A stretch of DNA of 64,000 nucleotides from IMG/VR virus record IMGVR_UViG_3300044979_000004, positions 25,200 to 89,199 of that record. One strand, given 5' to 3'. Source of the stretch: a virus. The position numbers were made by a program, and so were the translations under genes. Of this stretch, positions 12,681-64,000 are shown piece after piece; positions within the stretch are counted from its first letter, which is position 1; the number at the start of each line of letters is the position of its first letter. The notes below the pieces were generated by a model. It had not been told where the DNA came from, did not search any database, and saw only the letters and a program-made list of their open reading frames with translations.

Positions 12681-12686
12681 AGGTGT

Positions 12687-13322: not shown

Positions 13323-13340
13323 AAACACAAACACCACTTA

Positions 13341-13388: not shown

Positions 13389-13398
13389 GGAGATATAA

Positions 13399-14603: not shown

Positions 14604-14611
14604 GAGAGACG

Positions 14612-17509: not shown

Positions 17510-17518
17510 GAGAACGAC

Positions 17519-17794: not shown

Positions 17795-17796
17795 GC

Positions 17797-18132
17797 ATGG
17801 CAATAAACCAAATTTCGGGCGGAGCATTTCAAGATTCTGTCGGTAACGTGTTAGCTAACGGCTATCTTGTATTCCGATTAAATCAAGATGCAACCGTGAC
17901 TACCAATCCGCAAATCTGCTCAGACTATGAGGTAACAGTCCCGTTGGATGAGAATGGCAATGTAGTCCTATCGCCTGCTTATTCCTTCTGGCCAAATGAT
18001 CAGCTAACACCAAGCAACACATTTTACACGGTAACAGCTTACTCGGCAAGTGGCCAGTTAGTTTGGGGACCATCTTACAATCGTGTACTCTCATCACCAT
18101 CCCCATTTGATATTGGCGCATGGACGCCTTAA
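17797..18132 (+). CDS. small fibre-anchor-like protein, paralog of 14319..14603
   Basis: Shared motifs as above. Confidence 0.6.
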   Translation: MAINQISGGAFQDSVGNVLANGYLVFRLNQDATVTTNPQICSDYEVTVPLDENGNVVLSPAYSFWPNDQLTPSNTFYTVTAYSASGQLVWGPSYNRVLSSPSPFDIGAWTP

Positions 18133-18144
18133 AGGAGAACTACA

Positions 18145-20889: not shown

Positions 20890-20961
20890 AATCAACAACT
20901 TACAAGGAAACGATGAACAAGGGAAATAGAACAAATCATCCGATCCACAGGGAGATTTAAA

Positions 20962-21198
20962 ATGCCAGCATTAAGTGATGCAATCGGGCAGGATTTGAGT
21001 AACTATGTTGGTGTAGAGCCAATAAGTGCCCAATCTAATCCCACAACAGCCAATGGGGGCACCGTAAGTCTATTGCCGGTAGGCACTGGATTTATTAGAT
21101 GCCCTCTACCAATCCTGTCCCAAGCATCGGATCAGCTTAGATCATTTTATCTAGGCAACCGTGCAACACAGAATAGAATCTACGTAGCCCAGAGCTAA
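20962..21198 (+). CDS. hypothetical virion protein
   Basis: GGGAG RBS, within the operon. Confidence 0.5.
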   Translation: MPALSDAIGQDLSNYVGVEPISAQSNPTTANGGTVSLLPVGTGFIRCPLPILSQASDQLRSFYLGNRATQNRIYVAQS

Positions 21199-21205
21199 GG
21201 AATAA

Positions 21206-21649
21206 ATGATCACGAGTCGATACATAACTGCGGAAGACTACCCGTTATTGGAAACAAGTTTAGCTGCTGATCCCTACCATAAAGGAACGTCAATAGATTT
21301 CTTCAAAGAGCAGAACACCGTTACAAGTGTGTATTCATTTGATGATGAGTTGATCTTGTTCACGAGAGGAAAAGTAGTATCAACCAGTGGACCGGCGTTC
21401 ATACAACTTGACATTCAATTTATCAACAACGAAAGTCGGGCTAAAAACCTGATAGTCATGTTGACAGGATTTTATGAATTGGAGAAGAAATCCAGACAAG
21501 AAGGATTTGCCGGATTCATATTCCACAGCGATGTACCTTTACTCCGGAAGTTTTGCATTCGCAGGCTAGGATTCAGCGAATGGGGAGACTTCTTGGTGAA
21601 AGTTTTTGAACAAGCGCCCCTTGACACGGGCCTAGGAGTTGAGGTATAA
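21206..21649 (+). CDS. hypothetical protein, possibly a degenerate acetyltransferase fold (P22 gp14-like position)
   Basis: Sits between nozzle and ejection genes; C-terminal F..RLGF. Confidence 0.4.
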   Translation: MITSRYITAEDYPLLETSLAADPYHKGTSIDFFKEQNTVTSVYSFDDELILFTRGKVVSTSGPAFIQLDIQFINNESRAKNLIVMLTGFYELEKKSRQEGFAGFIFHSDVPLLRKFCIRRLGFSEWGDFLVKVFEQAPLDTGLGVEV

Positions 21650-21650
21650 T
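21621..21650 (+). promoter_or_regulatory. sigma70-type promoter in front of the ejection-protein genes
   Basis: TTGACA-18-TATAAT. Confidence 0.55.
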
Positions 21651-22443
21651 GGCTTATACACATACACGGACCATCTTCGAATGGGACGAGAAGCGTATTA
21701 AATACGTCAAGGTTTATGATGAAGGCTACGAATGGGACGGACCAGTAGATCAAGCGTGCGGCTCGACTCCGCAACAGAACCAGATTGAAGGTGCGCAGCA
21801 AAACTTTATGACCCAAGCGCAGTCTCAGGCGTCAACGGTATTTGGGGGAGCATCACAGGCGTTTAACAGTCTGATGAGCGCGTTTGCACCAATCGTCGCA
21901 GCCGGTCCAAGTCAACAAGGCTTCTCACAGCAACAGCTTTCGAATCTCAATTCCCAGGCTATCACACAGACGGGCATTTCTTACAAGAACGCTAAAGAAG
22001 CAGTCGGAGAGGCACAATCATCCGTTGGTGGCGGCAACGTATCTCTACCAAGTGGAACCCAAACTGGAGAGGATTTGGGACTGGCCGAAAGTGCCGCTAA
22101 CCAAACTTCCAGCGAACTTGGGCAGATTACACAAGCCAATTATGAAAAAGGTAATGCAAATTATAATGCCGCCGTATCTGGAGAGCTAGCAGCGCCGGGT
22201 GTTTTTTCGGCTTCAACCGGAGCAACCGGGGCGGCTACAAGCGCAGGATCAGCAGCCGCAAGCACGGCCAATCAAATCGCGTCGCAGAATAATTCATGGG
22301 TAGGAGCCGTTACCGGCCTAGCCGGGGCGTTGGGCGGTGCAGCATTAGGTGACCCGGCTCTGTTTGCAGGAAGTAGCAGTTCACAGGGCGCACAAGATGC
22401 CCAACAGGTATCGAACTATCAATCAGATGGAAATGGATTCTAG
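21649..22443 (+). CDS. DNA ejection (internal virion) protein 1
   Basis: Ala/Gln/Ser/Gly-rich with a C-terminal glycine zipper; podovirus synteny. Confidence 0.6.
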   Translation: MAYTHTRTIFEWDEKRIKYVKVYDEGYEWDGPVDQACGSTPQQNQIEGAQQNFMTQAQSQASTVFGGASQAFNSLMSAFAPIVAAGPSQQGFSQQQLSNLNSQAITQTGISYKNAKEAVGEAQSSVGGGNVSLPSGTQTGEDLGLAESAANQTSSELGQITQANYEKGNANYNAAVSGELAAPGVFSASTGATGAATSAGSAAASTANQIASQNNSWVGAVTGLAGALGGAALGDPALFAGSSSSQGAQDAQQVSNYQSDGNGF

Positions 22444-22452
22444 GAGCGTTAA

Positions 22453-25344: not shown

Positions 25345-25353
25345 GGTGGACTA

Positions 25354-28020
25354 ATGGATCAGCAACAAGTACAAACCGGAACACCACAGGCAGGAGGTTC
25401 AACGCAGCTTCCTGCCGGATTTACTGTAGACTCGACACCATATCAGCCTCAACCTTCAGCCGGACAACCGGCTTCAGGACTACCGGCTGGATATACAGTA
25501 GATTCTACCCCGCAACCGGCTCCTCATCAGACAGCCATACAGAAAGTTACATCGGGACTGGAAGGTGACAAAGGATCGGATTGGGAAAGTCCTGTCCTGG
25601 GGCAAGGTATTTCTGGTGCCATTAAATCGGGTGCGGGAGGTTTGGGTAATATTCTTGACATGCTTAATCACCCAAGCCGTACAGCTATTTCGGTTGGTAA
25701 CGAAAAGCCTGAAGATGAAGTCATGGTAAGAAACGCAGCCAACTCTTACCGAAAGGCGCACCCCGACGCAACCCATGAGCAGGTACAGGCATTTATTCAG
25801 CAGTACGTTCAAGCTCCTGTATCGAGTCACATCCAAGATGCGGCTAACTGGCTACGTTCTGGTGGAGAGCCTACAGGCTTTTGGCAGAAGGTTGGCGCTG
25901 TTGGAGAACAGGCCCTAGAGTGGATCGGAACAGACGGAATATCTAAGATGGCATCGGCTCCTGCTAAAGCAGCCGAAGTCGGAAAAGCGGTTGAAGCTGT
26001 TGACACGGTTGGGCACGCTAAGCAGACATCAATGATCGCTCAAGTGTTGAAGTCAAATCCAAAGCTAGCCGGTTTGGTGGCGATGGGATTGAAAGCTGGA
26101 AAAGATGCTCTGACAATGGGAACTGGGAATGCTGTACAAACCCTGGTCCACACTGAAGACCCAAATCAGGCAGCTAGCGCTGGAATTACTGGCGGATTGA
26201 CTGCCGGAGTGTTGAGTGGAGTTGGAAGTGGAATTTCAGCACTTGCATCCAAAGGCGGCTCAGCGGCCAGTGATATTGCGGAACTAGGGCAAACTGCCGC
26301 TAACGCTCCTACCGGAGCGGAAGTCAACAATCAATTGGCGGACAGCGTAAATCAAACTGTTGCACCTGAGTTACAATCAGCACAATATGCCTTGACTGAG
26401 GCTGAAGGCGGTCTAGCCAATGCTGCTCAGTCCCCTCGTGATCTTGGAGTAGGCGCACCTGAAAGTGCGGCCATTACTGCTCAAGCTCAGAAGGCCGCAA
26501 AGGATGCTTACGAACAGCTTGGTACTAATTACGAGAAAGCTTCTAATGCAATTAAGACCAAATTAGCAGGGGTAAACAGAGACTTCAACGGCAGCGCATT
26601 ACAGAAGGCAGCGCAAGACATCATGGGTACAGCAGAGGCAACAAAAGACCCAATTGGTGAGACTCTAAGCATTGCCAACCCTGCCAGCGCCAAAGTAACG
26701 TCTCAGCTACAGAAGCTTGCTGATCCAGCAAGTGAGTTGGCAGTTGATGAAGACGGTAACTCACAGCAACTCACAGCCGATAAGTTGCTAGGTTACGCAA
26801 AGCAAATCAAAGAGAACCTGCGCGGAACTGGTTGGGCCACAGACGAGCAAAGGGCAGATAGAGATGTTTATCACAAACTTCTAGATGGCGTTCATGCTGA
26901 TCTGGAAGACCTTGCTAACAAGCACGTACAGGCGAACCCCACTGAGAACGCCCAAGCAGAACAAGGGGTACTTGGTGCTGTTCAGAAAATGAACTCTGAC
27001 TACAAAGCGGGTATCGCACGGTTCAAGAACACCGATGTTCAAGCCTTGTTGAAAGGCGGGGACAATGATGTAGCTGGAAGATTGATGCGAGGCGGTACAA
27101 GTGTAAGTGACATTAACACTGTACGAGATGCAATCGGAAAGCAGGCGTTTGGAAAGCTAGCAGATAGCTCACTACAACGAATGGCAGCGGACGCAGTTGA
27201 CGCAACTACGGGAGACTTCAGTTTCAAGAAATTCTTGAGTAATTGGAATCGTATTCCTCCCGCAACACGCTCTGCTATGTTCCAAGATTCCACAAAAAGC
27301 GGAGCCTTAGAGCAAGCACTTTATCAGACACAGGCTATTAACAAATCTGGTGTGATTCCTGAAATGACACAGAAGTTGAAAGATGTGAACACTACTGTAT
27401 CACAGTTGCTAGGTAATGGGGATGTTAGTACATTATTGAAAGACCCAGAACGTGTAACTAATCTTTCTCAGACTCTTGGGCCAGATGGAATGCAAAGCCT
27501 CGGAACCTCTATTCTTCAGAACCAACTTCGTGAAGCAAGCACCGATGTAGCCGGAAAGGTAAAAACTCCTGATACAGGTAAGGTTCTAGACTTCATCAAG
27601 TCGTTGAAGGATTCTCCGGAAGTTGTGGATGCATTATTTAAGCCAACACCGCAGGCTGAGCAAGCGTACACTAAACTGATTGGACAGCTACAAAACGTAC
27701 AATCAGTCAAGAACGCTATCAAGGCCGGAATCATTGCTCCTACCATTGCTGGAGCCATCGGGTCTGGTCCTATTGGGCACATCATCGGCGGAATTCTTAC
27801 AGCCGGGGAATTGGGCACAGCAACAGGCAGGGCAGTTCTTGAACATATCGCCAATAGTCCGAACAATTGGGCGACTCTCAGAGCCATCGACAACACTGTG
27901 AAAAGTCCCCTTGCCAAAACAGCCGGACGTGTGTTACAATACGGAGGTATGAAGGCGGCAAGTGGAAGCAGCCAGCAAGACGTACTTAACAGCACATCGG
28001 ATGTTTTGGGAGGAAGATGA
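25354..28020 (+). CDS. DNA ejection protein 3
   Basis: 888 aa Ala-rich helical protein with N-terminal LPAG(F/Y)TVD repeats; synteny. Confidence 0.6.
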   Translation: MDQQQVQTGTPQAGGSTQLPAGFTVDSTPYQPQPSAGQPASGLPAGYTVDSTPQPAPHQTAIQKVTSGLEGDKGSDWESPVLGQGISGAIKSGAGGLGNILDMLNHPSRTAISVGNEKPEDEVMVRNAANSYRKAHPDATHEQVQAFIQQYVQAPVSSHIQDAANWLRSGGEPTGFWQKVGAVGEQALEWIGTDGISKMASAPAKAAEVGKAVEAVDTVGHAKQTSMIAQVLKSNPKLAGLVAMGLKAGKDALTMGTGNAVQTLVHTEDPNQAASAGITGGLTAGVLSGVGSGISALASKGGSAASDIAELGQTAANAPTGAEVNNQLADSVNQTVAPELQSAQYALTEAEGGLANAAQSPRDLGVGAPESAAITAQAQKAAKDAYEQLGTNYEKASNAIKTKLAGVNRDFNGSALQKAAQDIMGTAEATKDPIGETLSIANPASAKVTSQLQKLADPASELAVDEDGNSQQLTADKLLGYAKQIKENLRGTGWATDEQRADRDVYHKLLDGVHADLEDLANKHVQANPTENAQAEQGVLGAVQKMNSDYKAGIARFKNTDVQALLKGGDNDVAGRLMRGGTSVSDINTVRDAIGKQAFGKLADSSLQRMAADAVDATTGDFSFKKFLSNWNRIPPATRSAMFQDSTKSGALEQALYQTQAINKSGVIPEMTQKLKDVNTTVSQLLGNGDVSTLLKDPERVTNLSQTLGPDGMQSLGTSILQNQLREASTDVAGKVKTPDTGKVLDFIKSLKDSPEVVDALFKPTPQAEQAYTKLIGQLQNVQSVKNAIKAGIIAPTIAGAIGSGPIGHIIGGILTAGELGTATGRAVLEHIANSPNNWATLRAIDNTVKSPLAKTAGRVLQYGGMKAASGSSQQDVLNSTSDVLGGR

Positions 28021-28355
28021 GCGTCTTTAAAACCGTAGTAATCACACTGTCGGTATCTACTCTGTTGGTGTGGAACCTTGCGCTAACGCTAGGATTCTCT
28101 GGTGTGGCCGGACGATTGGAAGTTGTATCACAGCAGAACACACAATTGATCGCGCACTCACAAGAGCAGGATAGCACTATTGCAACCCTGATCGATGTGC
28201 AAGTCGAAGATCATAAGCAGCTACATAGTGACACTGCCACCGAAGATGCAATCATCAAGAAGTTGAACGAAGTGATCGTTGCTATTAACGAAGACAGAAC
28301 GCCATCTACGCCGTCTCCTTCTAAAGAAGACAATAGTATTGCAAGGGGGCGCTAG
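28017..28355 (+). CDS. membrane-anchored coiled-coil protein
   Basis: N-terminal hydrophobic helix. Confidence 0.5.
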   Translation: MSVFKTVVITLSVSTLLVWNLALTLGFSGVAGRLEVVSQQNTQLIAHSQEQDSTIATLIDVQVEDHKQLHSDTATEDAIIKKLNEVIVAINEDRTPSTPSPSKEDNSIARGR

Positions 28356-28762
28356 TGCTTAGGCAAGACGAAGTACAGAAGAGTCAGCTAGTATTGGCAG
28401 GCTGGCAGCACGGACATAGGTACGGCGGGTATCTAGCCGCCTCTATGGTAATGTCGTGTATTGCTAATAGACAAAGACTTGGGTGGGGATCGTGGATGGA
28501 AGTAATCGACGCAATCCCCTCTCGATCTGCTACAATCGAACAGCCCAAAGGCACTCCCTCTATATGGGAACCTCACTTCGTCAAGTTGCTACATGAAGTA
28601 GAAGCTATATTTGATGGAAGTAAGGACTATGCTAAAGGCGCACTATACTGGTTTGATTCAGCAGAACCAGTTACTAATCCATGGTTTCAGGAAAAGATAT
28701 TAGGAGATGGTATCTCTCATCCTGTTGTAGGAAATATGAATTCTTTGATGTTCTTGAGGTAA
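28355..28762 (+). CDS. possible SleB/Hydrolase_2-like cell wall hydrolase
   Basis: V..CIANR, D..KGALYW and terminal GN..F pattern; divergent. Confidence 0.4.
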   Translation: MLRQDEVQKSQLVLAGWQHGHRYGGYLAASMVMSCIANRQRLGWGSWMEVIDAIPSRSATIEQPKGTPSIWEPHFVKLLHEVEAIFDGSKDYAKGALYWFDSAEPVTNPWFQEKILGDGISHPVVGNMNSLMFLR

Positions 28763-29049
28763 TGATGATTGATCCTATCATATCACCTATAGTGTTGTAC
28801 GAAGCTATTAAATTCTGGCTACCTGTTAGTGCTTTCTTTTTCGGCATCTACAAAGGTTGGGACTGGGTAAAAAGCACGATTAACGAAATTAAAACCGATG
28901 TAAAGGAAATGAAGGCAAGCATCTTAGAGCAGCGACAAGACTTCAGATCATTCCTGCTCCCACTGTTTGCTGTCGCGCAAGGCCAAGCGGCTAAAGCTCA
29001 GCCTGTTAGAGCTAAGAGAACTAGAAAAACACCAATCAAGAAGAAGTAG
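28762..29049 (+). CDS. holin-like membrane protein
   Basis: One transmembrane segment, coiled coil and basic tail; TAATG coupling with tandem Met starts. Confidence 0.45.
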   Translation: MMIDPIISPIVLYEAIKFWLPVSAFFFGIYKGWDWVKSTINEIKTDVKEMKASILEQRQDFRSFLLPLFAVAQGQAAKAQPVRAKRTRKTPIKKK

Positions 29050-34107: not shown

Positions 34108-34183
34108 GGGTTAGTAGCTCAATTGGGAGAGCATTCCCCTTGCACGGGAACGGTTGCAGGTTCGATGCCTGTCTGATCCACCA
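34108..34183 (+). tRNA. tRNA-Ala(UGC)
   Basis: Cloverleaf, G3-U70 pair, loop CT-TGC-AC, encoded CCA. Confidence 0.9.
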
Positions 34184-34308
34184 AAGTTACGAATGGTCGC
34201 CGCTGAGAGGGCACTCCGATGCGGCCTAAGACGAGCAAAGCGTCTGCCATTTCAGCGGCACGCCGGAACACTGTGATTTGCAGTCATAAGATTCGGCATG
34301 TCGTGTTT

Positions 34309-34383
34309 AGTCGCCTAGCTCAGAGGCAGAGCATCGCACCTACACTGCGAGGGTCGAGATTTCGAAATTCTCGGTGACTACCA
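34309..34383 (+). tRNA. tRNA-Val(UAC) with non-canonical C33
   Basis: Stem TCGCA/TGCGA, loop CC-TAC-AC, encoded CCA. Confidence 0.85.
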
Positions 34384-34436
34384 ATTTGGAACATAAACGT
34401 TCCATAACAGCCGTTAACGTAACATTTATGTTACAC

Positions 34437-34510
34437 TCGCAGTTCGTCCAACGGCAGGACAGCGGACTTTGACTCCGTGAATCAAAGTTCGAATCTTTGA
34501 CTGCGGGCCA
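34437..34510 (+). tRNA. tRNA-Gln(UUG)
   Basis: Loop CT-TTG-AC, GTTCGAATC T-arm, CCA. Confidence 0.9.
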
Positions 34511-34518
34511 TGTTTTAA

Positions 34519-34593
34519 GCGGGATTAGTGTTAGTGGTAGCAAGCTAGTCTTCCAAACTAGAAGGGTCAGTCCGAGTCTGACATTCCGCTCCA
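34519..34593 (+). tRNA. tRNA-Gly(UCC) with variant T-loop (TCCGAGT)
   Basis: GCG start, loop CT-TCC-AA, U discriminator, CCA. Confidence 0.85.
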
Positions 34594-34604
34594 ATTCAGA
34601 TTTC

Positions 34605-34680
34605 GCCTCTGTAGTTCAGTTGGTAGAGCATCGGTTTTGTAAACCGAATGTCGCCCGTTCGATCCGGGCCGGAGGCTCCA
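34605..34680 (+). tRNA. tRNA-Thr(UGU)
   Basis: Loop TT-TGT-AA, CCA. Confidence 0.9.
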
Positions 34681-34689
34681 GTTTCACAC

Positions 34690-34765
34690 AGGTTCATGGT
34701 CTAACGGCTATGATGCGCGTCTCCAAAACGCTGCGGTTACGGTTCGAATCCGTATGAGCCTGCCA
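34690..34765 (+). tRNA. tRNA-Trp(CCA)
   Basis: Loop CT-CCA-AA, GGTTCGAATCC, CCA. Confidence 0.85.
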
Positions 34766-54545: not shown

Positions 54546-55721
54546 CTATTCTAACACAGGTCCAAGCGACTTGTCAATACTTTTTTCTACAATTCCCAAC
54601 AATCTTTTCGCCTGAGTTTCCTCATACTTCTTCGCACAAGCTTGGCACGGCTCTTGAGTACCATTGCACTTCGTTGGCCTGACTCCCTTATAAGTACCAG
54701 ACTTCGGGCAGGCAACCTTGTGGATTTCTGCCTTTTCGTTGTCCTTCTGCCGCTTTTTCCACACCCGGTGTTCTTCCTTTTGTTCCATCATGCGTTCGTC
54801 CACAATTTGCATGGTTCTTGTGAGTACCAAAGCAGCTTCGAATGCGGCCCAATCGTCTTCAATGGTCTCCGGCCCCAGGTGCCATGCGTCGAAGTCGGCT
54901 GTGTCTTTACTCAACCTGATTATCCAACGATCTTTTACGTGTTCCCCGGTTTCCTCCTCATACGCTTTCAAATATGCAGCCGTCTGTAATAGGAACTCAT
55001 TGTACAGGTAGTTGGAAGTCTTCCAATCACAAATTGTCAGATGGTCTTTATATTTGGTCTTGCAGCAATCAGGATTATCACAAGAATCGGTAAGACACAA
55101 GCCGTCCATCGTCCCGGCATACCTAAATTTTCGGCTGTAGATTTTGCGCTCAGTAGAAATAAAACGGACATTGTGTTGAACCATCCAGTCAAGCGCAGCA
55201 ATGCAGGCACTCTTGGCCCGCATATCCTCTGGAGTATTGTCCAGTACCAACGCAGTCTGAGCTTCGTCACCTGCTAGAAGGGTTTTGATATAAACCTCAA
55301 TCCAAGAATGAGCTACGTGTCCAACTTCTCCGGCGTCCTCTAGCTTTTCCTTGTGGGCAGTCTTGCTAAGTTTGATAATCTCATCAAAGGTTGCCTTGCT
55401 CATACTCATGCTGGCATCTGACCCGGTGCCTACTACAAATGTAGATGCCAGTTTGTCAATCTTCTGAGCCATCATTTTGCAAGCCCAGGGAATCAGGATT
55501 TTTGATTTGTCAACGCTGTGAGACACTGAACTTACGCCCGGAATTTCTTCTAGGCCGTGTTTAGTCGGGAGTAAATAGCAATGTTGAGCAGGGTCGTACC
55601 TAATCTCAATGGTATGATTGTAGAACCAATAACTTTCAGTTAGCCCACCAAACCTCTGAATGAACTGTTCGATGTTTACCTGATCTTGTTGATTCTGTTG
55701 CTGTGCTTCTTGGTTTTCCAT
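54546..55721 (-). CDS. PD-(D/E)XK exonuclease
   Basis: G...H..IE, E, YAGT.D, DWKTS, Q..AY. Confidence 0.8.
   Translation of the reverse strand: MENQEAQQQNQQDQVNIEQFIQRFGGLTESYWFYNHTIEIRYDPAQHCYLLPTKHGLEEIPGVSSVSHSVDKSKILIPWACKMMAQKIDKLASTFVVGTGSDASMSMSKATFDEIIKLSKTAHKEKLEDAGEVGHVAHSWIEVYIKTLLAGDEAQTALVLDNTPEDMRAKSACIAALDWMVQHNVRFISTERKIYSRKFRYAGTMDGLCLTDSCDNPDCCKTKYKDHLTICDWKTSNYLYNEFLLQTAAYLKAYEEETGEHVKDRWIIRLSKDTADFDAWHLGPETIEDDWAAFEAALVLTRTMQIVDERMMEQKEEHRVWKKRQKDNEKAEIHKVACPKSGTYKGVRPTKCNGTQEPCQACAKKYEETQAKRLLGIVEKSIDKSLGPVLE
54548..54577 (-). promoter_or_regulatory. sigma70 promoter for the SSB-like gene
   Basis: TTGACA-18-TAGAAT on the - strand. Confidence 0.55.
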
Positions 55722-56075
55722 CCGATCCTTAAAATTCCATTAAGCTGCTTCTTTTCCATGCAGCGTCCACAGTACTGATTCTTCCGGCCCCAACGTCCGT
55801 AGATTGTCCACATGGCACAACCTACGAACCAACAAGCAAGGCGTCTAAGCTTCCATTTAATCCAGTCAGTCAAGATGCCATGATCCTCTCTATCGGTTCA
55901 ATGTTAGCTTCCGATACCTTGACGTGCCTGCCTTTACCAACAGGCATAATCTCGGCCAGACCGTTGACCCACGCATCAAACCGGCCAATGTACCAGCCAG
56001 ATTTGTAGTACCTTACCAATGTTCCCAGTACCAAACCTTCTGGTACTGGGATGACAACCTTACGCTTCGGCATTT

Positions 56076-56333
56076 TTACGCCTCTACCATCTCAAAGTCG
56101 ATGGTTTCTTGCACTCGTTGGCTGCGCTGCTCTCGTTCGAAGAACTCACGCTCGGCCCTCTTGAACCCCCTGATCCACCAGGATCGCTGCGGCTGATTGT
56201 TAAAAGGGCAGTTGTAGAAAGGAATTCTAATCCCAAATGCCGATGCTCCGGCCTTAGTTACGTTTTCTTCTCGGTTCTGAATCTTAGCAGGCTGCGCTAG
56301 AACTGTACGGCTAAATACTTTACGTCTCATCAT
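56076..56333 (-). CDS. Rmf-like small protein
   Basis: G..A...CPF...QRSWW.RG...A resembles ribosome modulation factor CPY...QRSQWLGGW. Confidence 0.55.
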   Translation of the reverse strand: MMRRKVFSRTVLAQPAKIQNREENVTKAGASAFGIRIPFYNCPFNNQPQRSWWIRGFKRAEREFFEREQRSQRVQETIDFEMVEA

Positions 56334-56339
56334 ATACCC

Positions 56340-56368
56340 ATTATACACAATTTCGTAGAAAAAAGCAA
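56340..56368 (-). promoter_or_regulatory. sigma70 promoter (leaderless mRNA) overlapping an upstream terminator hairpin
   Basis: TTGCTT-17-TATAAT with ATG 6 nt downstream; AAGCCCGTA/TACGGGCTT hairpin adjacent. Confidence 0.6.
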
Positions 56369-56678
56369 GCCCGTATTATTGGCGCTACGGGCTTGAGGTT
56401 AGGATGTTACAGCTATTGAAACAGTTCTTCTTTGAAGAGTTTCTTGCTATTGGTCTTGAGTTGCTGCTCAATAAACCGGGCAATCTGCTTGAAGGTTTTC
56501 CGCTTCCGAATAGATGTACCGTCATTTAAATCTGCCAAGGAATACAGGCTGGTAGGATCGTCACCCACGTACTCTCCAAGAGTATCGTTAAGGCCCGACA
56601 GGGCTAGGGCTTTTCTTCCAAGGGCCATATCAGTGCCATCATAATAAAACCTACAATTTCTTTGCGCAGGCTTTTTGA

Positions 56679-57263
56679 TTAGCTTCTTGTCTGCCAACAT
56701 CTTATCAAAAACTCCCAAACAGCAAAACTTGTGGGTTTCGGTGATCTGGTTGACCGTATGCAGACTTCCGTTGCCCTCTCGGTTAGATTCCATTCAGTCG
56801 AGTACACTTCCGTATCGAACATTTCGTCATCTAACTCCTGCACAGAAACGACCCCTAGGCATTTTGCCTTTGGTGCGAATACGTGCATCTTCCTTTGTAT
56901 TCTTTTGACCGTTGCTCCGCTATCTACAAAGTCATCTACTATAATGTACTTCTTAGTACCATCAAATCCCTCTACGTTATTTCCTGAATGGTTTTCGTCG
57001 TCCTCTTTGCGAACGAGTACCATTTCCTTTTCCAGGCGCAATGCAAGAATTGGACCGATAAGAGTACCAGATGATCCACTAAAAACTATCGTATCGTACG
57101 GTGCCGATATGGTTCGCATGGCCCTGGCTGCGTCTTGTGCGTGCTTCTTGAGGGATGCCGTACACACGAACTTTGTTATCCAACTCGATCCCCTATATCT
57201 CTCTCGCTTTACCATGCCACTCCTATGACATTGCTGCTGCAAAGGCTTTGCTGGCGGATTCAT
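56679..57263 (-). CDS. type I phosphoribosyltransferase-fold protein
   Basis: PRPP-binding loop IIVDDFVDSGAT; upstream LVRK. Confidence 0.75.
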   Translation of the reverse strand: MNPPAKPLQQQCHRSGMVKRERYRGSSWITKFVCTASLKKHAQDAARAMRTISAPYDTIVFSGSSGTLIGPILALRLEKEMVLVRKEDDENHSGNNVEGFDGTKKYIIVDDFVDSGATVKRIQRKMHVFAPKAKCLGVVSVQELDDEMFDTEVYSTEWNLTERATEVCIRSTRSPKPTSFAVWEFLIRCWQTRS

Positions 57264-57744
57264 CCGATTCTTTCAGATACTCGCCCGTGCTTTGGATCGA
57301 GCGATGGCCCAAATATTGACGAACCCGCTGAATTCCGATCTTATCAATCGTCTCCATAGCACAGGCGTGCTTTAGAGCGTGTGGGTGAAGTTTGTGCGCC
57401 GGAATGCCTGCCCTCTTGCCAGCCCGCTGCATGAGCTTTAGGACGCCGTTGCGGGTCATGGGAAACAATCGCTCGTGTTGTTTTAGTGTCTGTGCAAGCT
57501 CTGTCAGCCTGTCCGCCTCATTAAGCTCCGGCTCCGGGTGCCTAACGAATGGCTGCGTGGTCTTCATGGACCCTTTCAACCTTTGGACAGTAACGTAGCC
57601 GTCTCGGATGTTAGCCTTGGTCAAACTGATCAATTCACTCACCCTCAATGCATGTAAAAATCCCACGGCTATCATCAACTTTTGGCGCTCGTTTGGTATC
57701 TCTCGTATTAACTTAACGATTTCATCCTTGGTTAAGTATTGCAT
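57223..57744 (-). CDS. minimal tyrosine recombinase (catalytic domain only)
   Basis: LRVSE, RLKG, HALKH, LGH.SIQST..Y. Confidence 0.85.
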   Translation of the reverse strand: MQYLTKDEIVKLIREIPNERQKLMIAVGFLHALRVSELISLTKANIRDGYVTVQRLKGSMKTTQPFVRHPEPELNEADRLTELAQTLKQHERLFPMTRNGVLKLMQRAGKRAGIPAHKLHPHALKHACAMETIDKIGIQRVRQYLGHRSIQSTGEYLKESDESASKAFAAAMS

Positions 57745-59497
57745 CGACTTCTACCTTTCTGGTTGTCTCTTCGAAAATGCCCTCAATCGTGTCAACGAAT
57801 CCATATATGCCATGGTTGCGTTCTAACCATCGTCCAGTATGACCACTCTCCCCACGACACGGTAATCCATTGTCCGTGTTAAGAGTTTGGAGTCGCTTCA
57901 TCAAGTGTCTAGCGTGTTCCACGTTCTGACATATGTGTTTGATTCGGTGGTGTCGAGGGGAGCGGCCATAGTTGTACACAATGAGTGATATATAAATCAC
58001 AGTCTTCATAGTACCAAAACCTCTCTAGGCTGTCAAGCCTTCGGCTTCGGCCTTCGCATGACTCCAGCCGTCTTGCCACACACGCACCGTTGTCGGCTTC
58101 TTAGGATCGCGCCTGATCGATGCAATCGAGTAGGGCGGGATGTTCTTCCACCCTCTCTTAAACGCAAACTTCCCGGCTTCGTAAATGTCCGCGTCAGTGA
58201 CTTCGGGCGGAGGGAGATAGATGCACACTATGCCCTCCATTCCTTCGCTGTGTTGAACGCTTCCTCTTGAGAGCAAATCACACATTGCATGTGGGGCGGA
58301 AAACTGCCGACACCGTTGGCAATATGTACCACGTTGACGTGGTCCCCGACAGGGGTAAAGCTTAGTGAAGACACGGCTAGTACAGCCATATTCTCAGTCG
58401 TGACAGCGTACTGGCCCTCTTCAAGTTGTCCCAATGTAGTGAATTTCATGCTACCTTTCCTCTTAGTGAGGCCACAGCCTGATCCCAGGTGTCGCCAATT
58501 GCTAAAACGAGTTTGCCGTTCTTCTTACAGCCCACTCGTTTGTAGTTAATGTGGTCTTCAGTGAGGAAGCTTCCACCAAACTCTTTACGTCCAGCGTTGA
58601 GTACCTGTTCTTGTGCTGTCAAACGTGCCATGAATCTCCTGCTCCTAGTAGCTTTGTCCAGTACCATTCTGATCCCGTGCTTCGGCATCGGCCAGATGTT
58701 GACGGGCAGCGGCAAGCCGTGCTTGTAGCAGCACGCGCTCCTCGTTGCTGATCCCTTGGGTTAGTGCCAGTGTGTCGCGCTCAATCTCGGCGCGAAAGAA
58801 TGCTGCATTGTACTGCCGTGTGTCGTTCATGTTCTCCTTGTGTACTTTAGTTACTTAGAAGCTCTCGACAGTAACCTTGACGGTCCTGCCGTGGAGCTTG
58901 TTGTTGATCGCACGGATTTGCTGGCGAACTGTTTCCAGTTTCTCCTGCACGTCGCTCTCTCCGCCCAGGAATACAACAGGCACCCAGGTTCCATCTGCCT
59001 TGATAGCCACTTCACGGCCTTCTACCAGGGTCTTTCCGGCCAGTACCAAATCAGGATACTTGTCGGCCAGTGAGAACACGCGAAGATTGACAAGCAGAAT
59101 CGATCCGGCTAGCCCTGCGCGTTCGGTGTCCCGGTCAGTTACGAGGATGAAGTTGACGTGTGGCTTGGCTTCTGCAATGACCCGTTCAAGGTATGCATCG
59201 TCGTTAGTTGTGGTGAAACTGTATACATCAGGCGTATTTGATACGCGGCTCAATTTAGAACTCATGTGACTTCTCCTTAATCTTTTATTACCATTGTGGG
59301 GGACGCTCGGAGTCTTCTCGCGGTAATGGTCCGATATGAACTCCACTGCCTTACATGTGGATACCTACACGCACACCCACAATCTTTTGTCACAAACCTG
59401 CCATCCCTCTTATGTCCAAAGGACATCACCATGTTCATTCATGGTCTGTGCGGCGATTTCCTTTTCAGGTTCAGTTGGTCCGCACCGGAATGAGAGT

Positions 59498-59902
59498 TTA
59501 CTTCGTTGCGGTCTTTGTGGCCTTCTCAGCCTTCCGCCACACTCGCACCGCACCAGGAACCTCTCGCAGGATCACGGCAAGCCCGTTGCGGTATGCAAAC
59601 GTCCGGATGCTGGTAGAGACTGACTTCACCTTGTCCGCCGCAGCAGGCACATCGAAGAACTGGTCAGAATCGGCCTTAAGCTGATCGATGGGATATTTCA
59701 GACCGGCTGTACGTCCGCGCTTAGTCGGTACAGGTGCAGTACCAAAAGTGAATCCACTCCGGATTGTCTCCAACACGTTGCCAAGAACCTCTTCGTATGA
59801 AGGGATTTCAGGCTGAGATTCCACGTCTGCCGGTTCTTCCGGAACACGGGGAACGATTGCAATGTCCCTATCGGTTAATACAGAACTCTTTTTCTTAGAC
59901 AT
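59498..59902 (-). CDS. small putative DNA-binding protein
   Basis: RGR...KYP.DQL....FFDVP...VRVWR pattern; has its own promoter and a dyad site. Confidence 0.5.
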   Translation of the reverse strand: MSKKKSSVLTDRDIAIVPRVPEEPADVESQPEIPSYEEVLGNVLETIRSGFTFGTAPVPTKRGRTAGLKYPIDQLKADSDQFFDVPAAADKVKSVSTSIRTFAYRNGLAVILREVPGAVRVWRKAEKATKTATK

Positions 59903-59928
59903 CAGGTTGCTTTCCGCGCCTTAGCGCT

Positions 59929-59984
59929 GCGTATTTAATACGCAATTACAAGTCCATGGTACCACAACACAATCCGATTGTCAA
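59929..59984 (-). promoter_or_regulatory. sigma70 promoter with a 15-bp dyad just downstream of the start site
   Basis: TTGACA (59984-59979)-17-TACCAT; dyad at 59929-59943. Confidence 0.7.
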
Positions 59985-60431
59985 GGTTTATTTACTTGAC
60001 GTTGTGGTAGATGTGCTCTTAAACAGAGTACCACAGATGAAATTCAGCCAGAATGCCTTCCAAAACGTTAGCTGGCTAACCCCAAATACGGCCTTCAATG
60101 CTGCTGGCGCAACCAGATAATTGATTACCCACAACGTAGGCCATGCAAACAACAGTGATAACCCAATGACAAGAGCTACCACCCCGATTACCACTCCAGT
60201 TCCTAGTAAAACCTTTACCATAGTTCTCCTTTTACTTACGCTCTTACTTACTCCGGCTCGTAACCTCTTTCTCTTTGCTCCCGGTCCCAATCGGCGCTGC
60301 TTGTGTACGTCCGCAAGCGCTTTCTAGTTACCACTTTGGCAGCAACTAGAATCAAACCAATTGATAGCAGCAAGCTAAGCGCCATCAGTCCCAATCCCAT
60401 TAGCAGATGTGGCATTGTTGTCTCCAATCTC

Positions 60432-60466
60432 AGTACCATTATACCTCAGTACCATTTGTATGTCAA
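60432..60466 (-). promoter_or_regulatory. consensus sigma70 promoter with two ATGGTACTGAG direct repeats
   Basis: TTGACA-17-TATAAT; one repeat in the spacer and one directly after the -10 box. Confidence 0.75.
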
Positions 60467-60498
60467 GAGGTACTTAATCCTCTAAACATTTCCTCTAG

Positions 60499-61176
60499 TC
60501 AGGCCCAACTCGTATCCTCATCTTCCGGCATGATGGCTGCGTCCTTGTAGCCCTTGATTGCTTTGTTGCCGTTCATCCATGCTTTTTTGATGGGAGTGTT
60601 TACCGTTGCTGGCAACTTTTTAATACGATTGAGTAAAGACTTTGCAAACGGGGTAGCGGCCTTGACATTCATCGGCAAGTACAGCGGTAGTCCGGCTTCA
60701 AGCTCGCCCAGGGGGAACTCTCTGATCATCTCCATAGCCCACTCGCCGTGAGAACCGCGCTTCAAGGCTCCGGGTCCGCTTATGTCTACGTAATCGTCAA
60801 TCCCAGGATGGTAAACGACACAATGATTCGGGGAATCATCGGCGTCACCTACTCCGAGAATGGGCCATCCCGTTTCCTTGCTGATCACGTAGGCGAGACT
60901 GTGACACTGACCCGTGTTCAATGCGCGGCGGGCATTGTCGTTGATAACCCCTAAGTGCTTCTTAGGGGTTATCTCTAGAGGAATCTTCTTCTGGAACCCA
61001 TACGGCCCAGAGTAAGTGTCCACGGTGACGATCTGATTGCGGCGATTGTTGGTCGAATTATTTGTCTGCACGTTACGCCTCCGCTCCGGTGATAAACAAC
61101 TTCTCACCCAGAACTTCATTCCACTCGGCAAACATCGCCGTAACAAAGCCGGTGTCGTAAGCTTCCACATCTCCAA
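60499..61176 (-). CDS. papain/transglutaminase-like fold candidate
   Basis: GQCHSLA, HCVV, YVDI.G (Cys-His-Asp order). Confidence 0.45.
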   Translation of the reverse strand: MEMWKLTTPALLRRCLPSGMKFWVRSCLSPERRRNVQTNNSTNNRRNQIVTVDTYSGPYGFQKKIPLEITPKKHLGVINDNARRALNTGQCHSLAYVISKETGWPILGVGDADDSPNHCVVYHPGIDDYVDISGPGALKRGSHGEWAMEMIREFPLGELEAGLPLYLPMNVKAATPFAKSLLNRIKKLPATVNTPIKKAWMNGNKAIKGYKDAAIMPEDEDTSWA

Positions 61177-61612
61177 TAATGGTATCGTAGATGGTCAGCC
61201 CGCGTTCTTTCAGCCCCTCGTTCTGATCCCCATTGAGGAGATGCTTCTCGGCAACGATAGCCAGCTTCCGGTTATCGTTCTGGTAGAACGCATTGAGGAA
61301 TTGCAGGCACACCCCAACAGGAAAGCGTGAGTGTAGGTGCATCCGGTCTGCCCGGTATTGCTTCGACAATGCTACATGCGTCGGTGAGTGCTTCAATGAC
61401 ATGATTCCCATTCGGTAAATCTCCTTTGTCCGTGTTGGCTGTTGTACTGCGATTAGTGGTGATTGAGGCAAACCAAACCTGCGTCAATTAAAGCTTTTGC
61501 TTGCCGTCCGTAGGCTCCCTGTAAACTCCAAGCAAGCCCGGAATATACAAGCTCTTGGAACAGTTCGATGGTGCCTTGCTCATCTAGGTCACCATTCTCC
61601 CAGGCCATCATT

Positions 61613-61954
61613 TTATCCAATTGATCCATCGGCTTGATCCTCCGGCGCACCATCGCGCTCCACAAGTACCACAGTCGCCGCCAGTTCTGCAATCGCCACG
61701 CTTTCCTGATTGGTTGCGCGTCTGATCTTCTCGGCCAATCGAGTTGCTATAAACTCGTCAATACCGAAAATCTCGATGATCAGAGACTTCTCCTTGACTC
61801 CTTTATAGTATCCGGTTCCTTCGATCAAAGTGTAGCCGTCTACGTCTTTGTCTCCGGTAAGAATGTCGATAATCAGTGACCGATAGTTTGCCCGGTCTTC
61901 GCAGTAAATCCGATAGACGTTGGGTGTATCTTGAAGCGGTACTAAATGGGACAT
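61613..61954 (-). CDS. PII-like / SAM-lyase-like small protein
   Basis: GYT...G.G.Y.G..E.S..IE, LA..I...NQESV. Confidence 0.4.
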   Translation of the reverse strand: MSHLVPLQDTPNVYRIYCEDRANYRSLIIDILTGDKDVDGYTLIEGTGYYKGVKEKSLIIEIFGIDEFIATRLAEKIRRATNQESVAIAELAATVVLVERDGAPEDQADGSIG

Positions 61955-62599
61955 GGTTCAATCTCCTGATATCCGATGTGCATGGAGCCTTTCAGCATTA
62001 GCTGCTCCCACTCATCCGTTAATTGTTCGTTATAGTCGCTGAACTGATGTTCTCGATCATCCTGGCACGTCCTCAGATAGAACTCAGCACTAAATTCTAT
62101 GCCATTGAGTTGATAAGAAAACGTACCCATGTGAATGTCGCAGTTCTCGGCAGGCTCCTCGGCCTGAATGCGCGAGATATGCAGAGTCGCCATGATTAAG
62201 ACTCCTCTACAATCTCGACAACCTTTTCGCCCGTCCGCTCCAGCAAAGGAATTTCAAAGGCGAGATGTTCGAAAACCGATCCGATAAGGATTTCCCCACC
62301 CTTAGCGAACCACCAGATGTGTAGGTAATGCTCGACAACCATTCCAACACATCCGAATGCGGCCAGTACGACTACCTTGCGGGTAAGGTAGCGCTGCCAG
62401 TGAATGTGACGGACATCACGTAAATGTATGTCCTTCAAAGATTTGCTCATGCATAAGTACCATCCTCTCTTGTTAAAATGTTATTGTTGAGATGATAGCG
62501 ATTAGTACCACTGCCATCAGGATAGCTGCATCTCCGAGTGTGAACTCCTCTTCAGGATATTCTTCAGCTTCGGTTTGAACTAACTTGATCATATCAGAG

Positions 62600-63109
62600 T
62601 TACCTCAATTCGTCAAGAGATTTGTTTCTGATTGTCCACAAGTAATGCTCAACAAATGCATACTGCTCTTGCGGGAAGTGTCCAGTTTTGGCATACTCGT
62701 CAAACTGCCCGATCACTTCGGCGTATACGATACGCTTGAACCACTCCCGATGTGTTACTCCTAAGACTGTGTTATACCCCATCATCGGCCAGAATGTATT
62801 GTCCAGCCCAGGGTACTCGTCGATCTGTCGCCACATCTCCAGCATGGCCTTGTATTCACCCTCTCGGCTGAAGTCACCATCCGTGATGAGATGACAAGCA
62901 TCGTGCCACGCACGGAATAGCCAGTTGATCGTAGGATCACCAAAGACAGTACCAGTCGAGTAGTCTACGTTGATCTTGATGGAACCTCTCGCCCGATAGT
63001 CGGCCTTCATCGCAGCAAAGTCCGGGTAGCTGGTTCCTGACAACGTGTGCGGTACAAGGCTACCAAAGAATCGAACCAAACCATTAAACTCGTGATTAAG
63101 AACTGGCAT
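62600..63109 (-). CDS. hypothetical phage protein
   Basis: AAGGA RBS; FRAWHD..H...F...GE motif. Confidence 0.6.
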   Translation of the reverse strand: MPVLNHEFNGLVRFFGSLVPHTLSGTSYPDFAAMKADYRARGSIKINVDYSTGTVFGDPTINWLFRAWHDACHLITDGDFSREGEYKAMLEMWRQIDEYPGLDNTFWPMMGYNTVLGVTHREWFKRIVYAEVIGQFDEYAKTGHFPQEQYAFVEHYLWTIRNKSLDELR

Positions 63110-63536
63110 GTTATCCTTTCTTCACCTTAACAGGTGGCTGATATCCGTTAGGTGGCCGATAGCCACAGTTTAGGCAGTGTCCGCCGAATGTCATATGCCA
63201 CGCTGCGCAAGGCGGATTCGGTTTCTTTTTAAGAGTCCATTCGTGATGGGTCATGTTGTGCTGAGCCATGGTTAAAACTCCTACACTCTCACTACATCGA
63301 CGGATTCTGTACTGTTCACGTCCCAGGTTTCTACAGTTACCGATCCGTAGTTGAGTCGATGAGGAGCGATTTCTTCCTCAGTAGGGTAATGATCTAGAAC
63401 ACTCGCAACGTCTGAGCTTTCATGGCTCCACGTCCCTACAATCAAGTAAACGCGTCGTTTCTTAGGCATGTTGTTATCCTCTCACAGTTCGGATGTTTTG
63501 TCAAGTGAAAAAGTACCAGTAGTACCAGTATATTTT

Positions 63537-63731
63537 TCACACCATCGGGTAGACTATGATCTGCTTCCACCCGTTCCGGATTAGCTCTTGCGCCTCTTGA
63601 GTACCATTGGCAAACTCACCGGCAGTATCGCAATCACACGCATCTACAGCACGGATGAGCAGGCTTTTAAGCTTGTAGCCGCGTCGATAGATTGCTGCCC
63701 ATCCAGTGCGAGTTGTTACTAAACAATCCAT
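63537..63731 (-). CDS. small hypothetical protein
   Basis: GAGG RBS before ATG 63731. Confidence 0.45.
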   Translation of the reverse strand: MDCLVTTRTGWAAIYRRGYKLKSLLIRAVDACDCDTAGEFANGTQEAQELIRNGWKQIIVYPMV

Positions 63732-63739: not shown

Positions 63740-64000
63740 TCATCCTTTTGAATTCTTGCGCATGTATTTGAGAAATATTTTCTCTTGCGCAGCCCGACTC
63801 GCAGCCCAACTCGCAGCCCAACTCGCAGCCTCACTCGCAGCCTCACTCGCCCGACTCGCAGCCCAACTCGCAGCCCGACTCGCAGCCCGACTCGCAGCCC
63901 GACTCGCCCAACTCGCAGCCTCACTCGCAGCCTCACTCGCCCAACTCGCAGCCTCACTCGCCCAACTCGCAGCCTCACTCGCAGCCTCACTCGCAGCCTC
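63740..64000 (-). CDS. Ala-rich repeat protein, C-terminal part (S[W/R/E]AA repeats ...AAQEKIFLKYMRKNSKG)
   Basis: Open frame missing from the track because its start lies outside the window; TGA at 63742-63740. Confidence 0.65.
   Translation of the reverse strand, partial: EAASEAASEAASWASEAASWASEAASEAASWASRAASRAASRAASWAASRASEAASEAASWAASWAASRAAQEKIFLKYMRKNSKG
63788..64000. repeat. 12/9-bp tandem repeat ACTCGCAGCC(CG/CA/TC)
   Basis: Continuous array running to the window end. Confidence 0.95.

Follow-up and report, generated by a model that had tools for sequence, protein, structure and literature searches.

A seven-letter DNA word arrayed in one orientation in a phage gene block and avoided in that orientation elsewhere

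The window analysed here is a stretch of 64,000 nucleotides, covering bases 25200 to 89199 of a virus record that is 89,199 bases long and comes from an uncultured soil phage. Towards its right-hand end the seven-letter word AGTACCA recurs on the plus strand, reading TGGTACT on the sense (minus) strand of the genes of the array. Genes of this and the other uncultured genomes are crude open reading frame calls made in this analysis. The features concerned are these.

1-54656, no strand assigned: rest of the window; plus strand with 0 AGTACCA, 0 AGTACC and 1 GTACCA, complementary orientation at chance
54546-55721, minus strand: exonuclease gene (391 aa, phrog_298), the final array gene in this genome, with 4 copies
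54657-63606, minus strand (sense TGGTACT): AGTACCA array, 22 exact copies at a mean spacing of about 430 bp
56024-56050, no strand assigned: hairpin with a 10-bp stem and a 7-nt loop, formed by the copy at 56027 and the array's sole inverted copy (CCCAGTACCA ... TGGTACTGGG)
57223-57744, minus strand: gene for a stand-alone tyrosine-recombinase catalytic domain, 173 aa (Pfam PF00589, E 1.4e-21; also matched in phrogs)
58008-58036, minus strand: promoter-like TTGACA-17-TACTAT, 10/12 matches with the TG present (promoter scan)
60432-60466, minus strand: sigma-70-like promoter TTGACA-17-TATAAT, 12/12 matches (promoter scan)
63512-63527, minus strand: pair of copies at 9-bp spacing, immediately before a TTGACA and within the inverted repeat GTGAAAAA/TTTTTCAC, by eye
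63788-64000, minus strand: 12-bp tandem repeat, an open frame of EAAS/WAAS/RAAS repeats, at the end of both window and contig

Small lineage-specific proteins are encoded within the array, and its gene content and promoter-like sites suggest that the block is the first-expressed DNA. No DNA-binding family or domain was found in the subset of array proteins scanned, and there was a weak S-adenosylmethionine-lyase-like match (E 0.018). The tyrosine-recombinase gene was called in 9/9 fetched IMG/VR relatives (G001 and G003-G010), and at the matching place Tunturi 3, a cultured podovirus of Tunturiibacter psychrotolerans, has gp84, which is annotated as an 'integrase'. The phage itself has two podovirus traits, an SU10/P22-type portal and a 963-aa protein with matches to families of internal virion proteins and of transglycosylases, and it encodes its own RecA and two exonucleases.

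Because the repeat at the contig end is a coding open frame, the contig stops there through a break in the assembly, and no genome terminus was seen. The array lies near the contig end on account of this break in coding tandem repeats. As the contig stops 394 bp beyond the array, its upstream limit is out of view. Three relatives (G001, G003 and G007) assembled as circles, with overlaps of 30, 97 and 127 bp.

Exact counting found the plus-strand word at all 22 coordinates given in the preliminary description, from 54657 to 63606, and confirmed the single inverted copy within the cluster (56041). The claim that the first 54 kb lack AGTACCA held for the plus strand, with none before 54657, but five inverted copies lie there. 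The 89-kb record as a whole has 22 forward copies, all in its last 9.4 kb, and 8 reverse copies; with 0 plus-strand copies outside 54657-63606, there is no similar density genome-wide. Dinucleotide shuffles of the window, counted on both strands, averaged 7.11 copies with a maximum of 14, and 0 of 100 reached 28. Within called genes of the array block there were 15 copies against 2.2 expected from synonymous-codon shuffles, so the enrichment stands above a codon-shuffled control. The reading frames of the window copies were xTG-GTA-CTx 9, xxT-GGT-ACT 7 and TGG-TAC-T 0, with 6 between gene calls; for the 93 copies of four genomes the corresponding numbers were 22, 41, 5 and 25. As the frames are mixed, one codon pair is not enough to explain the enrichment, which is due neither to chance nor to a single codon pair.

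Several copies sit at positions of possible regulatory interest. Two lie directly before start codons, as had been noticed, that at 58010 by 1 nt and that at 62456 by 6 nt. The former (58010-58016) supplies the TGG and TACT of an extended -10, and ends 1 nt before the ATG of the gene at 57722-58009. The description of tandem pairs at promoter-like sites was right for 60432/60448, where the promoter is perfect, with one copy in the spacer (60448-60454) and another (60432-60438) beginning at the final base of the -10 hexamer. It was only partly borne out for 63512/63521, where the TTGACA is visible by eye and the promoter scan called no minus-strand promoter at 63512-63527.

The AGTACCA array is common to five relatives: G001, whose proteins are about 50-60% identical to those of this phage, the fragment G002, G003, G004 and G006. 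Forward and reverse copies number 22/8 in this record, 23/6 in G001, 28/7 in G003 and 20/12 in G004, with 8/0 in the fragment, while G006 has 11 copies of CTGGTACT, with conserved flanks (GAGCTGGTACT). In the four genomes the arrays contain 91 of the 93 forward copies and 2 of the 33 reverse copies; inverted pairs are present inside or beside them. The arrays extend over 9-17 kb at about 1.3-2.5 copies per kb, an enrichment of about 10-fold in one block, on the sense strand of the block of small genes that comes before the genes for replication. The head of the array is abrupt in two complete relatives, with 4-7 copies within 70-150 bp and sparser copies thereafter. A terminator tool found a terminator just upstream of the head in G001 and G003, and the packed head copies of G003 lie upstream of its strongest promoter-like site.

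By our own gene calls, 68 of the 93 sites are intragenic and 25 intergenic. When aligned they have the seven letters in common throughout, and neither the 45 positions upstream nor the 25 downstream carry information. Copies can abut at spacings of 7-9 bp, and this, with the uninformative flanks, would suit a scanning reader. Positions turn over between relatives and density is kept: the exonuclease orthologues carry 0 to 4 copies each, mostly elsewhere in the gene, at 14 sites spread over 11 alignment columns. An array kept in relatives at about 50-60% protein identity while its positions turn over supports the earlier suggestion of a directional DNA signal, and one that is under selection.

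Two relatives use different 7-mers in the equivalent block. One has GCACAGG, with 19 of the 22 plus-strand copies within 14 kb, and the other, Tunturi 3, has CAGCGGA, with 24 of 25 copies in about 10 kb and 9 on the other strand. Since one of these words belongs to a cultured phage, the matter is open to experiment.

The word and its 6-letter cores are purged outside the arrays by DNA orientation, regardless of gene direction, which is a new finding. The two forward cores, summed over four genomes, occurred 7 times in late genes against 84.8 expected from synonymous-codon shuffles, about 0.08 of expectation or a purge of about 12-fold, whereas the reverse cores were at chance level under the same control (121 against 136.5). 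In same-sense genes outside the arrays there were 17 forward cores against 46.8 expected (four genomes, codon shuffles). Full 7-mers behaved likewise in late genes, with 23 sense-oriented copies against 19.6 expected and 1 antisense-oriented copy against 14.7. The purge is even along 47 kb of late genes and does not weaken further away from the convergent junction. When all 5-, 6- and 7-mers were ranked without bias by direction-independent asymmetry, GGTAC, GGTACT and TGGTAC came first, with counts of 4 against 56 and 4 against 64 in late genes, and 5 against 34 and 12 against 30 in same-sense blocks; a 44-kb fragment, G014, had GGTACT 13 against 1. The purge was weaker in the same-sense genes of G001 and G004, weak in the upstream block of Tunturi 3, and not significant in G009 by the codon-shuffle control. 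Reverse copies in early and middle genes were mildly depleted (74 against 95 expected, 0.78), which leaves room for some cost tied to transcription.

Whatever the explanation, it has to account for an orientation that is barred from the same DNA strand throughout the genome, irrespective of which way the genes run. We infer a reader of TGGTACT that would see one strand or one direction only, across the whole genome. With such a reader the word would be a polar signal for a one-way genome machine, acting in entry, replication or packaging, and not in local transcription; as extra copies appear harmful elsewhere, it would most likely be a hold or stop signal, wanted on the early segment only. 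We put forward tentatively, as a possibility with less than even prospects, that TGGTACT is an orientation-specific recognition word of this kind. The form we prefer is control of stepwise genome entry in this podovirus, whose internal virion protein has a transglycosylase domain; the loading sites for DNA entry of the original proposals, or hold sites, would fit as members of the class that survives, a one-way process acting genome-wide. The specificity of the reader would vary by lineage (TGGTACT, GCACAGG, CAGCGGA). Against a one-way machine, no reader came to light, we know of no signal for genome entry, the replication fork or packaging that takes the form of a dispersed 7-mer, and several copies at promoter positions point towards transcription. 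Headful packaging, if used, would leave no fixed leading end.

A reader acting on transcription is an alternative to such a machine. The copies could be asymmetric operators of a phage- or host-encoded early-gene regulator, whether a stoperator-type repressor or an activator, which we think rather unlikely. Copies crowd around the first promoter-like sites of the block, some in -10 or spacer positions, and within the array every copy points with transcription; the word varies by lineage, like co-evolving regulator-site pairs, and the array encodes lineage-specific small proteins. Stoperators are likewise asymmetric and orientation-dependent (PMC9283540). However, most copies are intragenic (68 of 93), the site is 7 bp without flanking information, and neighbouring copies may follow each other at 7 bp; the subset of array proteins scanned showed no DNA-binding domain, and the p163 family is absent from G006, where the array is still present. 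Orientation along transcription, sought genome-wide, holds inside the array and fails in late genes, which keep the blocking orientation at chance (7-mers 23 against 19.6) while the non-blocking one is purged about 12-fold. This is the opposite of what a transcription-oriented block predicts, and argues against the stoperator-like silencing first proposed. The same counts speak against the mRNA tag proposed alongside it. A co-transcriptional tag in the non-template strand or nascent RNA, boosting the processivity or stability of early transcripts like ops/RfaH or nut, would run in the same direction as the early genes and recur throughout long operons of small genes, as the word does, and a positive tag would do harm antisense to late genes and not in their sense strand, as observed. 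Yet across 47 kb the purge is as strong far from the convergent junction as near it, early and middle genes have lost few of their antisense-oriented copies (0.78), the head copies of G003 lie upstream of its strongest promoter-like site, and three unrelated words in related phages are ill-suited to a conserved, polymerase-bound reader. We therefore hold a tag to be improbable.

Host enzymes offer two further readers. That the word is the site of an orientation-dependent defence or restriction enzyme (for example Type III, Type ISP, Type IIL or BREX-like), with the purge as evasion and the array as a decoy or sink on the first-entering DNA, would account for three unrelated, asymmetric, contiguous 7-mers, each with an adenine, in related phages. 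The removal of one orientation regardless of gene direction resembles the bias of EcoP15I sites in T7, and the weak S-adenosylmethionine-lyase-like match (E 0.018) would also fit. But avoidance of the Type III or Type ISP sort should leave a single orientation, and both are kept (22/8, 23/6, 28/7, 20/12), including inverted pairs, which such an enzyme should cut; evasion leaves a 10-fold enrichment unexplained, and would not suit the conserved flanks of the G006 word. Such an enzyme seems to us a poor prospect. Least probable, and very unlikely in our estimate, is a Chi-like signal taming a host helicase-nuclease at a DNA end beside the array. CAGCGGA includes AGCGG, the Chi of Bacillus subtilis. 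The word is short, exact, clustered and in one orientation, with density conserved and position not, and terminally clustered sites have a precedent in the phages LLS and MD8 (20 against 3 and 32 against 0, PMC12315714). The active orientation, though, is neither tolerated nor favoured elsewhere but purged, late genes keeping about 0.08 of the number expected, and the phage has RecA and two exonucleases, modules that Chi-rich lambdoid phages lack (PMC12315714); these two points told against the Chi-like protection originally suggested. TGGTACT is under-represented against its control in three metagenome-assembled genomes with related capsid genes, which may not be the host's (317/627, 285/531 and 302/464, about 0.5-0.65), and CAGCGGA is only at about 0.8-2.3 times control in 31 genomes of the Terriglobia order.

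Returning to a polar signal read by a one-way DNA machine, the different words of related phages raise the prospect, which we rate as possible but below even, of a switchable, lineage-specific 7-letter 'address code' in an Acidobacteriota podovirus family, written on one strand of the early segment only and excluded from that strand in all other parts of the genome. From it the machine would tell the early segment apart and handle it in its own way. If true, this would be a kind of phage cis-element without a described counterpart, and would show by what means the first-acting DNA of a podovirus is marked. If the reader were instead a host defence enzyme, a new kind of evasion joined with a decoy would be at hand. 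Tunturi 3 gives the group a cultured member, whose own word is open to recoding, to moving and to use as bait.

Among known polar words, KOPS, read by FtsK, and SRS, read by SpoIIIE, are short, have a one-way DNA translocase as reader and are counter-selected in the wrong orientation. They are enriched along whole replichores, pointing to dif. The word described here is likewise short and polar with one orientation selected against, but its enrichment is confined to 9-17 kb, and elsewhere the permitted orientation occurs about as often as expected (121 against 136.5). Phage T7 keeps its EcoP15I sites, CAGCAG, in a single orientation with no enriched array. Our phages resemble it in having one orientation of a short asymmetric word removed irrespective of gene content, and differ in retaining both orientations, one of them enriched 10-fold in a single block. 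The ops elements are 12 nt long, stand singly or a few together in an operon leader, and are read on the non-template strand; here there are 20-28 copies of seven letters, mostly intragenic.

The Chi clusters of LLS (lambdoid) and MD8 (Pseudomonas) are alike in being a short, exact, asymmetric word, nearly in a single orientation, in one part of the genome and intragenic, with copy number mattering over position (PMC12315714). There the word is the host's known Chi, with copies beside a defined cos end, the active orientation is favoured genome-wide and recombination genes are absent (PMC12315714). In our phage the array orientation is purged outside the array, and RecA and exonucleases are present. 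The stoperators of Cluster A phages (L5 gp71 and the TipsytheTRex repressor) share with the array more than 20 asymmetric sites, a tie to gene direction and some sites in promoters (PMC9283540). Stoperators, however, are 13 letters long and occur throughout the genomes of temperate phages, in promoters and short intergenic gaps; on both arms they are oriented with transcription, and the repressor that binds them is known (PMC9283540). The word here is a 7-mer, intragenic in 68 of 93 cases and in one block only; its avoidance tracks the DNA strand and not transcription, and the scanned subset of array proteins yielded no repressor. The injection stop signal of T5 resembles the role we favour: it acts in cis, on the early-gene segment that goes in first, in a phage with stepwise entry (bioRxiv 10.1101/866236). 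In T5 the signal consists of inverted and direct repeats, with DnaA boxes, gathered in one non-coding place at the boundary of the DNA that enters first (bioRxiv 10.1101/866236), whereas the 7-mer is dispersed over 9-17 kb, mostly inside genes.

An exact search of the window matched all 22 plus-strand copies of AGTACCA that the preliminary description had placed between 54657 and 63606, as well as the single inverted copy within the cluster (56041). The word's claimed absence from the first 54 kb held for the plus strand, which has none before 54657; the same 54 kb contain five inverted copies. Dinucleotide-preserving shuffles of the window gave a mean of 7.11 copies on both strands, and 0 of 100 reached the 28 observed. 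The window is the final 64 kb of an 89,199-base virus record. Counted over that record, the word has 22 forward copies, none of them outside the last 9.4 kb, and 8 in reverse, which excludes a similar density genome-wide. The array-block genes lie on the minus strand, hence the sense-strand word TGGTACT, and we infer that they are early genes. By our own gene calls the window copies fall in mixed reading frames (xTG-GTA-CTx 9, xxT-GGT-ACT 7, TGG-TAC-T 0, between genes 6), and 15 intragenic array copies were observed where shuffling synonymous codons within each gene gave an expectation of 2.2. A single codon pair, another refuting outcome that had been raised, is thus also excluded. The array's sole inverted copy and a forward copy form a perfect 10-bp hairpin within a small gene (window 56024-56050).

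The record, rated 93% complete, carries the following genes.

Family A DNA polymerase
Primase-helicase, RecA, SF2 helicase, two RNA ligases and ribonucleotide reductase
SU10/P22-type portal
Two exonucleases
963-aa protein with matches to internal-virion-protein and transglycosylase families
L135:11458-11857 (G000:C1, the record's contig), minus strand, permuted (two-piece) tmRNA (Rfam, 81.8 bits)
tRNA genes, six outside the window (ARAGORN) and six tRNA matches clustered at window 34108-34762

There was no RNA polymerase among the record's proteins scanned. The major capsid protein (window 5616-6650) has 268 relatives in a viral contig collection and is 92-95% identical to its orthologues in three related IMG/VR genomes (G001, G003, G004), while orthologues of most other proteins are 50-65% identical. 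This points either to much stronger constraint on the capsid gene or to its recent exchange. A 173-aa protein (window 57223-57744) consists of a tyrosine-recombinase catalytic domain alone, without the N-terminal DNA-binding part. All nine IMG/VR relatives compared here carry it in their early block, and Tunturi 3, a cultured relative, has a gene annotated as 'integrase' at the matching position. A 113-aa early protein (window 61613-61954) has a weak, sub-threshold match (E 0.018) to S-adenosylmethionine lyases and is possibly an anti-restriction gene product. Where the late block starts lies a 589-aa ORF (L135:17772-19541) with no relative in the nine genomes and no PHROG match.

G001 has the same gene order as the record; most of its proteins are about 50-60% identical to those of the record, its capsid protein 95%. 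Over the entire protein, the G001 large terminase shares 54.6% identity with that of Tunturi 3 (PP885686.1), whose annotated gene order agrees with that of this family. Tunturi 3 is described as a podovirus with a genome of 97.6 kb whose isolation host was the acidobacterium Tunturiibacter psychrotolerans X5P2 (PMC11924767). Related capsid genes in three metagenome bins, one Bacteroidetes, one Bryobacteraceae and one Terriglobia, give a weak hint of the hosts. A near-identity search of the array block against a phage collection gave no match. In the literature collection searched, the papers listed held no account of the word in phages or of strand-specific over-represented heptamers in phage early regions, and nothing usable on the terminal repeats of T7.

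We compared the nine relatives (G001, G003-G010) as whole genomes, using our own longest-ORF calls for the uncultured genomes and setting compartments and array bounds by these calls and the outermost word copies. TGGTACT is the most clustered 7-mer in the record, G001, G003 and G004.

Arrays in related genomes (forward/reverse copies; extent)
G001: 23/6; 92903 to 10094, spanning the junction of the circular assembly
G003: 28/7; 9350 to 26407 (orientation as re-set in the analysis)
G004: 20/12; 71619 to 86289
G002 (5.7-kb fragment): 8/0; array bounds not defined
G006: 11 copies of CTGGTACT, with GAGCTGGTACT in six of them; 19170 to 29008

Across the record, G001, G003 and G004, 91 of 93 forward copies lie inside the arrays, as do 2 of 33 reverse copies. 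No arrays were found in G005 or G007. Two candidates were dropped: CGGTACT in G010, whose copies fall in late genes, and AAAGACG in G008, which looks like Lys-Asp codons.

When the 93 sites were aligned, information was confined to the seven letters, with none in the flanks. The 14 sites of the exonuclease orthologue occupy 11 alignment columns, and only five forward pairs share flanks between genomes, so array density is kept while positions turn over. The array starts abruptly in G001 (four copies in 70 bp) and G003 (seven in 150 bp), and some of these head copies abut directly. A strong terminator-like hairpin, which a terminator scan also picked up, lies 270-400 bp upstream of these heads. 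Density declines with distance from the head, and the orthologous gene at which the array stops varies between genomes. In G003 a dyad, GCGTATTAAATACGC, lies between terminator and array head (L100, about 10160-10180). G004 has a second small group of six forward 6-letter cores in 5 kb (L101:1-5000), including a full 7-mer at 2115, at the far end of the same-sense block just before the late genes.

The contig does not show where the record's own array begins upstream. Its end there is an assembly break, as tandem repeats within coding sequence occupy both ends of the contig: one end cuts off a pentapeptide-repeat protein (A[ND]L[SR][GS] units; G000:C1:1-394, minus strand, outside the window), and an EAAS/WAAS/RAAS four-residue repeat lies at the other (window 63788-64000). 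Terminal overlaps of 30 bp (G001), 97 bp (G003) and 127 bp (G007) are as in circular assemblies. There is a pentapeptide-like gene at the G001 contig junction and a six-residue repeat gene (YGDAQV-type) inside the G009 array.

Any reading of the arrays must now meet a new constraint: outside them the forward word is nearly absent, and this follows DNA strand. On the plus strand of the record's first 79 kb AGTACC occurs 0 times and GTACCA once, while their complements number 20 and 25 over the whole record. We summed the two 6-letter cores over four genomes, taking expectations from synonymous-codon shuffles.

Six-letter cores by gene class (observed; expected)
Late genes (opposite sense to the array), forward cores: 7; 84.8
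Late genes (opposite sense), reverse cores: 121; 136.5
Same-sense genes outside arrays, forward cores: 17; 46.8
Array plus same-sense genes, reverse cores: 74; 95.1

As forward cores are purged under both gene directions and reverse cores are near expectation, the cost of a copy is set by the DNA strand that carries it, not by its direction relative to the local gene. The forward depletion in same-sense genes is strong in two genomes (the record, G003) and weak in the other two (G001, G004). Late genes contain 0.38 of the expected number of the 5-letter core GGTAC. A ranking of all 5-, 6- and 7-mers by asymmetry that keeps its sign under either gene direction put GGTAC, GGTACT and TGGTAC at the top. 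Interior one-letter variants of the word were not depleted in the record, and the purge showed no gradient over 47 kb from the convergent junction of the two gene sets. In a 44-kb fragment, G014, GGTACT counts are 13 versus 1.

Other lineages use other words. G009, as distant from the record as G006 is, has GCACAGG in the same block: 19 of 22 plus-strand copies fall within 14 kb, and the first 350 bp hold four of these. The purge in G009 does not reach significance. In Tunturi 3, 24 of 25 sense-strand copies of CAGCGGA lie within about 10 kb, the other strand has 9, and the block also holds 13 CAGCGAA. The core CAGCGG is depleted downstream (middle genes 1 versus 7, late genes 6 versus 17, bins read by hand). 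The use of three unrelated 7-mers favours a reader with readily exchanged specificity; candidates are a phage protein particular to each lineage and a host enzyme that varies between strains. A phylogenetic profile gave p134, p163 and p90 as candidates; two further 'ORFs' proved to be tRNA genes. The p163 family has 37 unnamed homologues, none from G006. Among the array proteins scanned (Pfam, PHROGs) there was no DNA-binding family, a profile search against solved structures gave nothing with E below 0.3, and an Atlas search gave no usable match.

The explanation we prefer is tentative and still on the unlikely side: the word is read genome-wide on one strand or in one direction, the candidate processes being genome entry in stages, the polar stopping of a fork or another translocase, and a stop signal for packaging. 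The reader would sense one strand or direction along the whole genome; copies would be advantageous in the early segment and costly outside it. A scanning enzyme would account more readily than a row of bound proteins for copies that abut and for the graded avoidance of the 5-, 6- and 7-letter cores. Within this class, control of genome entry is our tentative choice, inferred from the podovirus core protein and the array's position over presumed first-acting genes. An mRNA tag, suggested in the preliminary description, does not fit late sense-oriented copies at chance level and purged antisense copies, and in G003 all seven head copies precede the top sigma-70-like site (TTGACA-17-TATTCT). If the word were an autonomous promoter or activator site, antisense copies should be avoided equally in early and late genes; the ratios are 0.78 and 0.08. 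By eye, several copies resemble TGG plus TACTNT, 17 bp from a TTGnnn hexamer; a scan supports only 58036..58008 (within the window). A promoter role was rejected: T stands two positions after the word in 28 of 93 sites, as expected by chance, and the aligned sites lack a -35 signal. Pure Type III restriction avoidance would leave one orientation; both persist here, one enriched. Nor did any conserved-flank locus carry the word or its complement across genomes using different words (three groups), as a guide RNA would require.

Two further candidates of the preliminary description, silencing and protection, also run against the purge. Stoperator-like silencing predicts the opposite of what is seen, with the late-blocking orientation at chance level and the harmless one purged. 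Under Chi-like protection the active orientation should be tolerated or favoured outside the cluster; here it is purged. TGGTACT is under-represented in the three metagenome bins of candidate host lineages, and the Tunturi 3 word is at about 0.8-2.3 times control in 31 Terriglobia-order genomes. Chi-type terminal clusters do have a real precedent in phages LLS and MD8, where, as described, such protectors go with a lack of recombination genes (PMC12315714), whereas the record has RecA and two exonucleases. Cluster A stoperators are described as 13-mers in intergenic gaps whose orientation follows transcription (PMC9283540); here, in contrast, the word is a 7-mer avoided by DNA strand.
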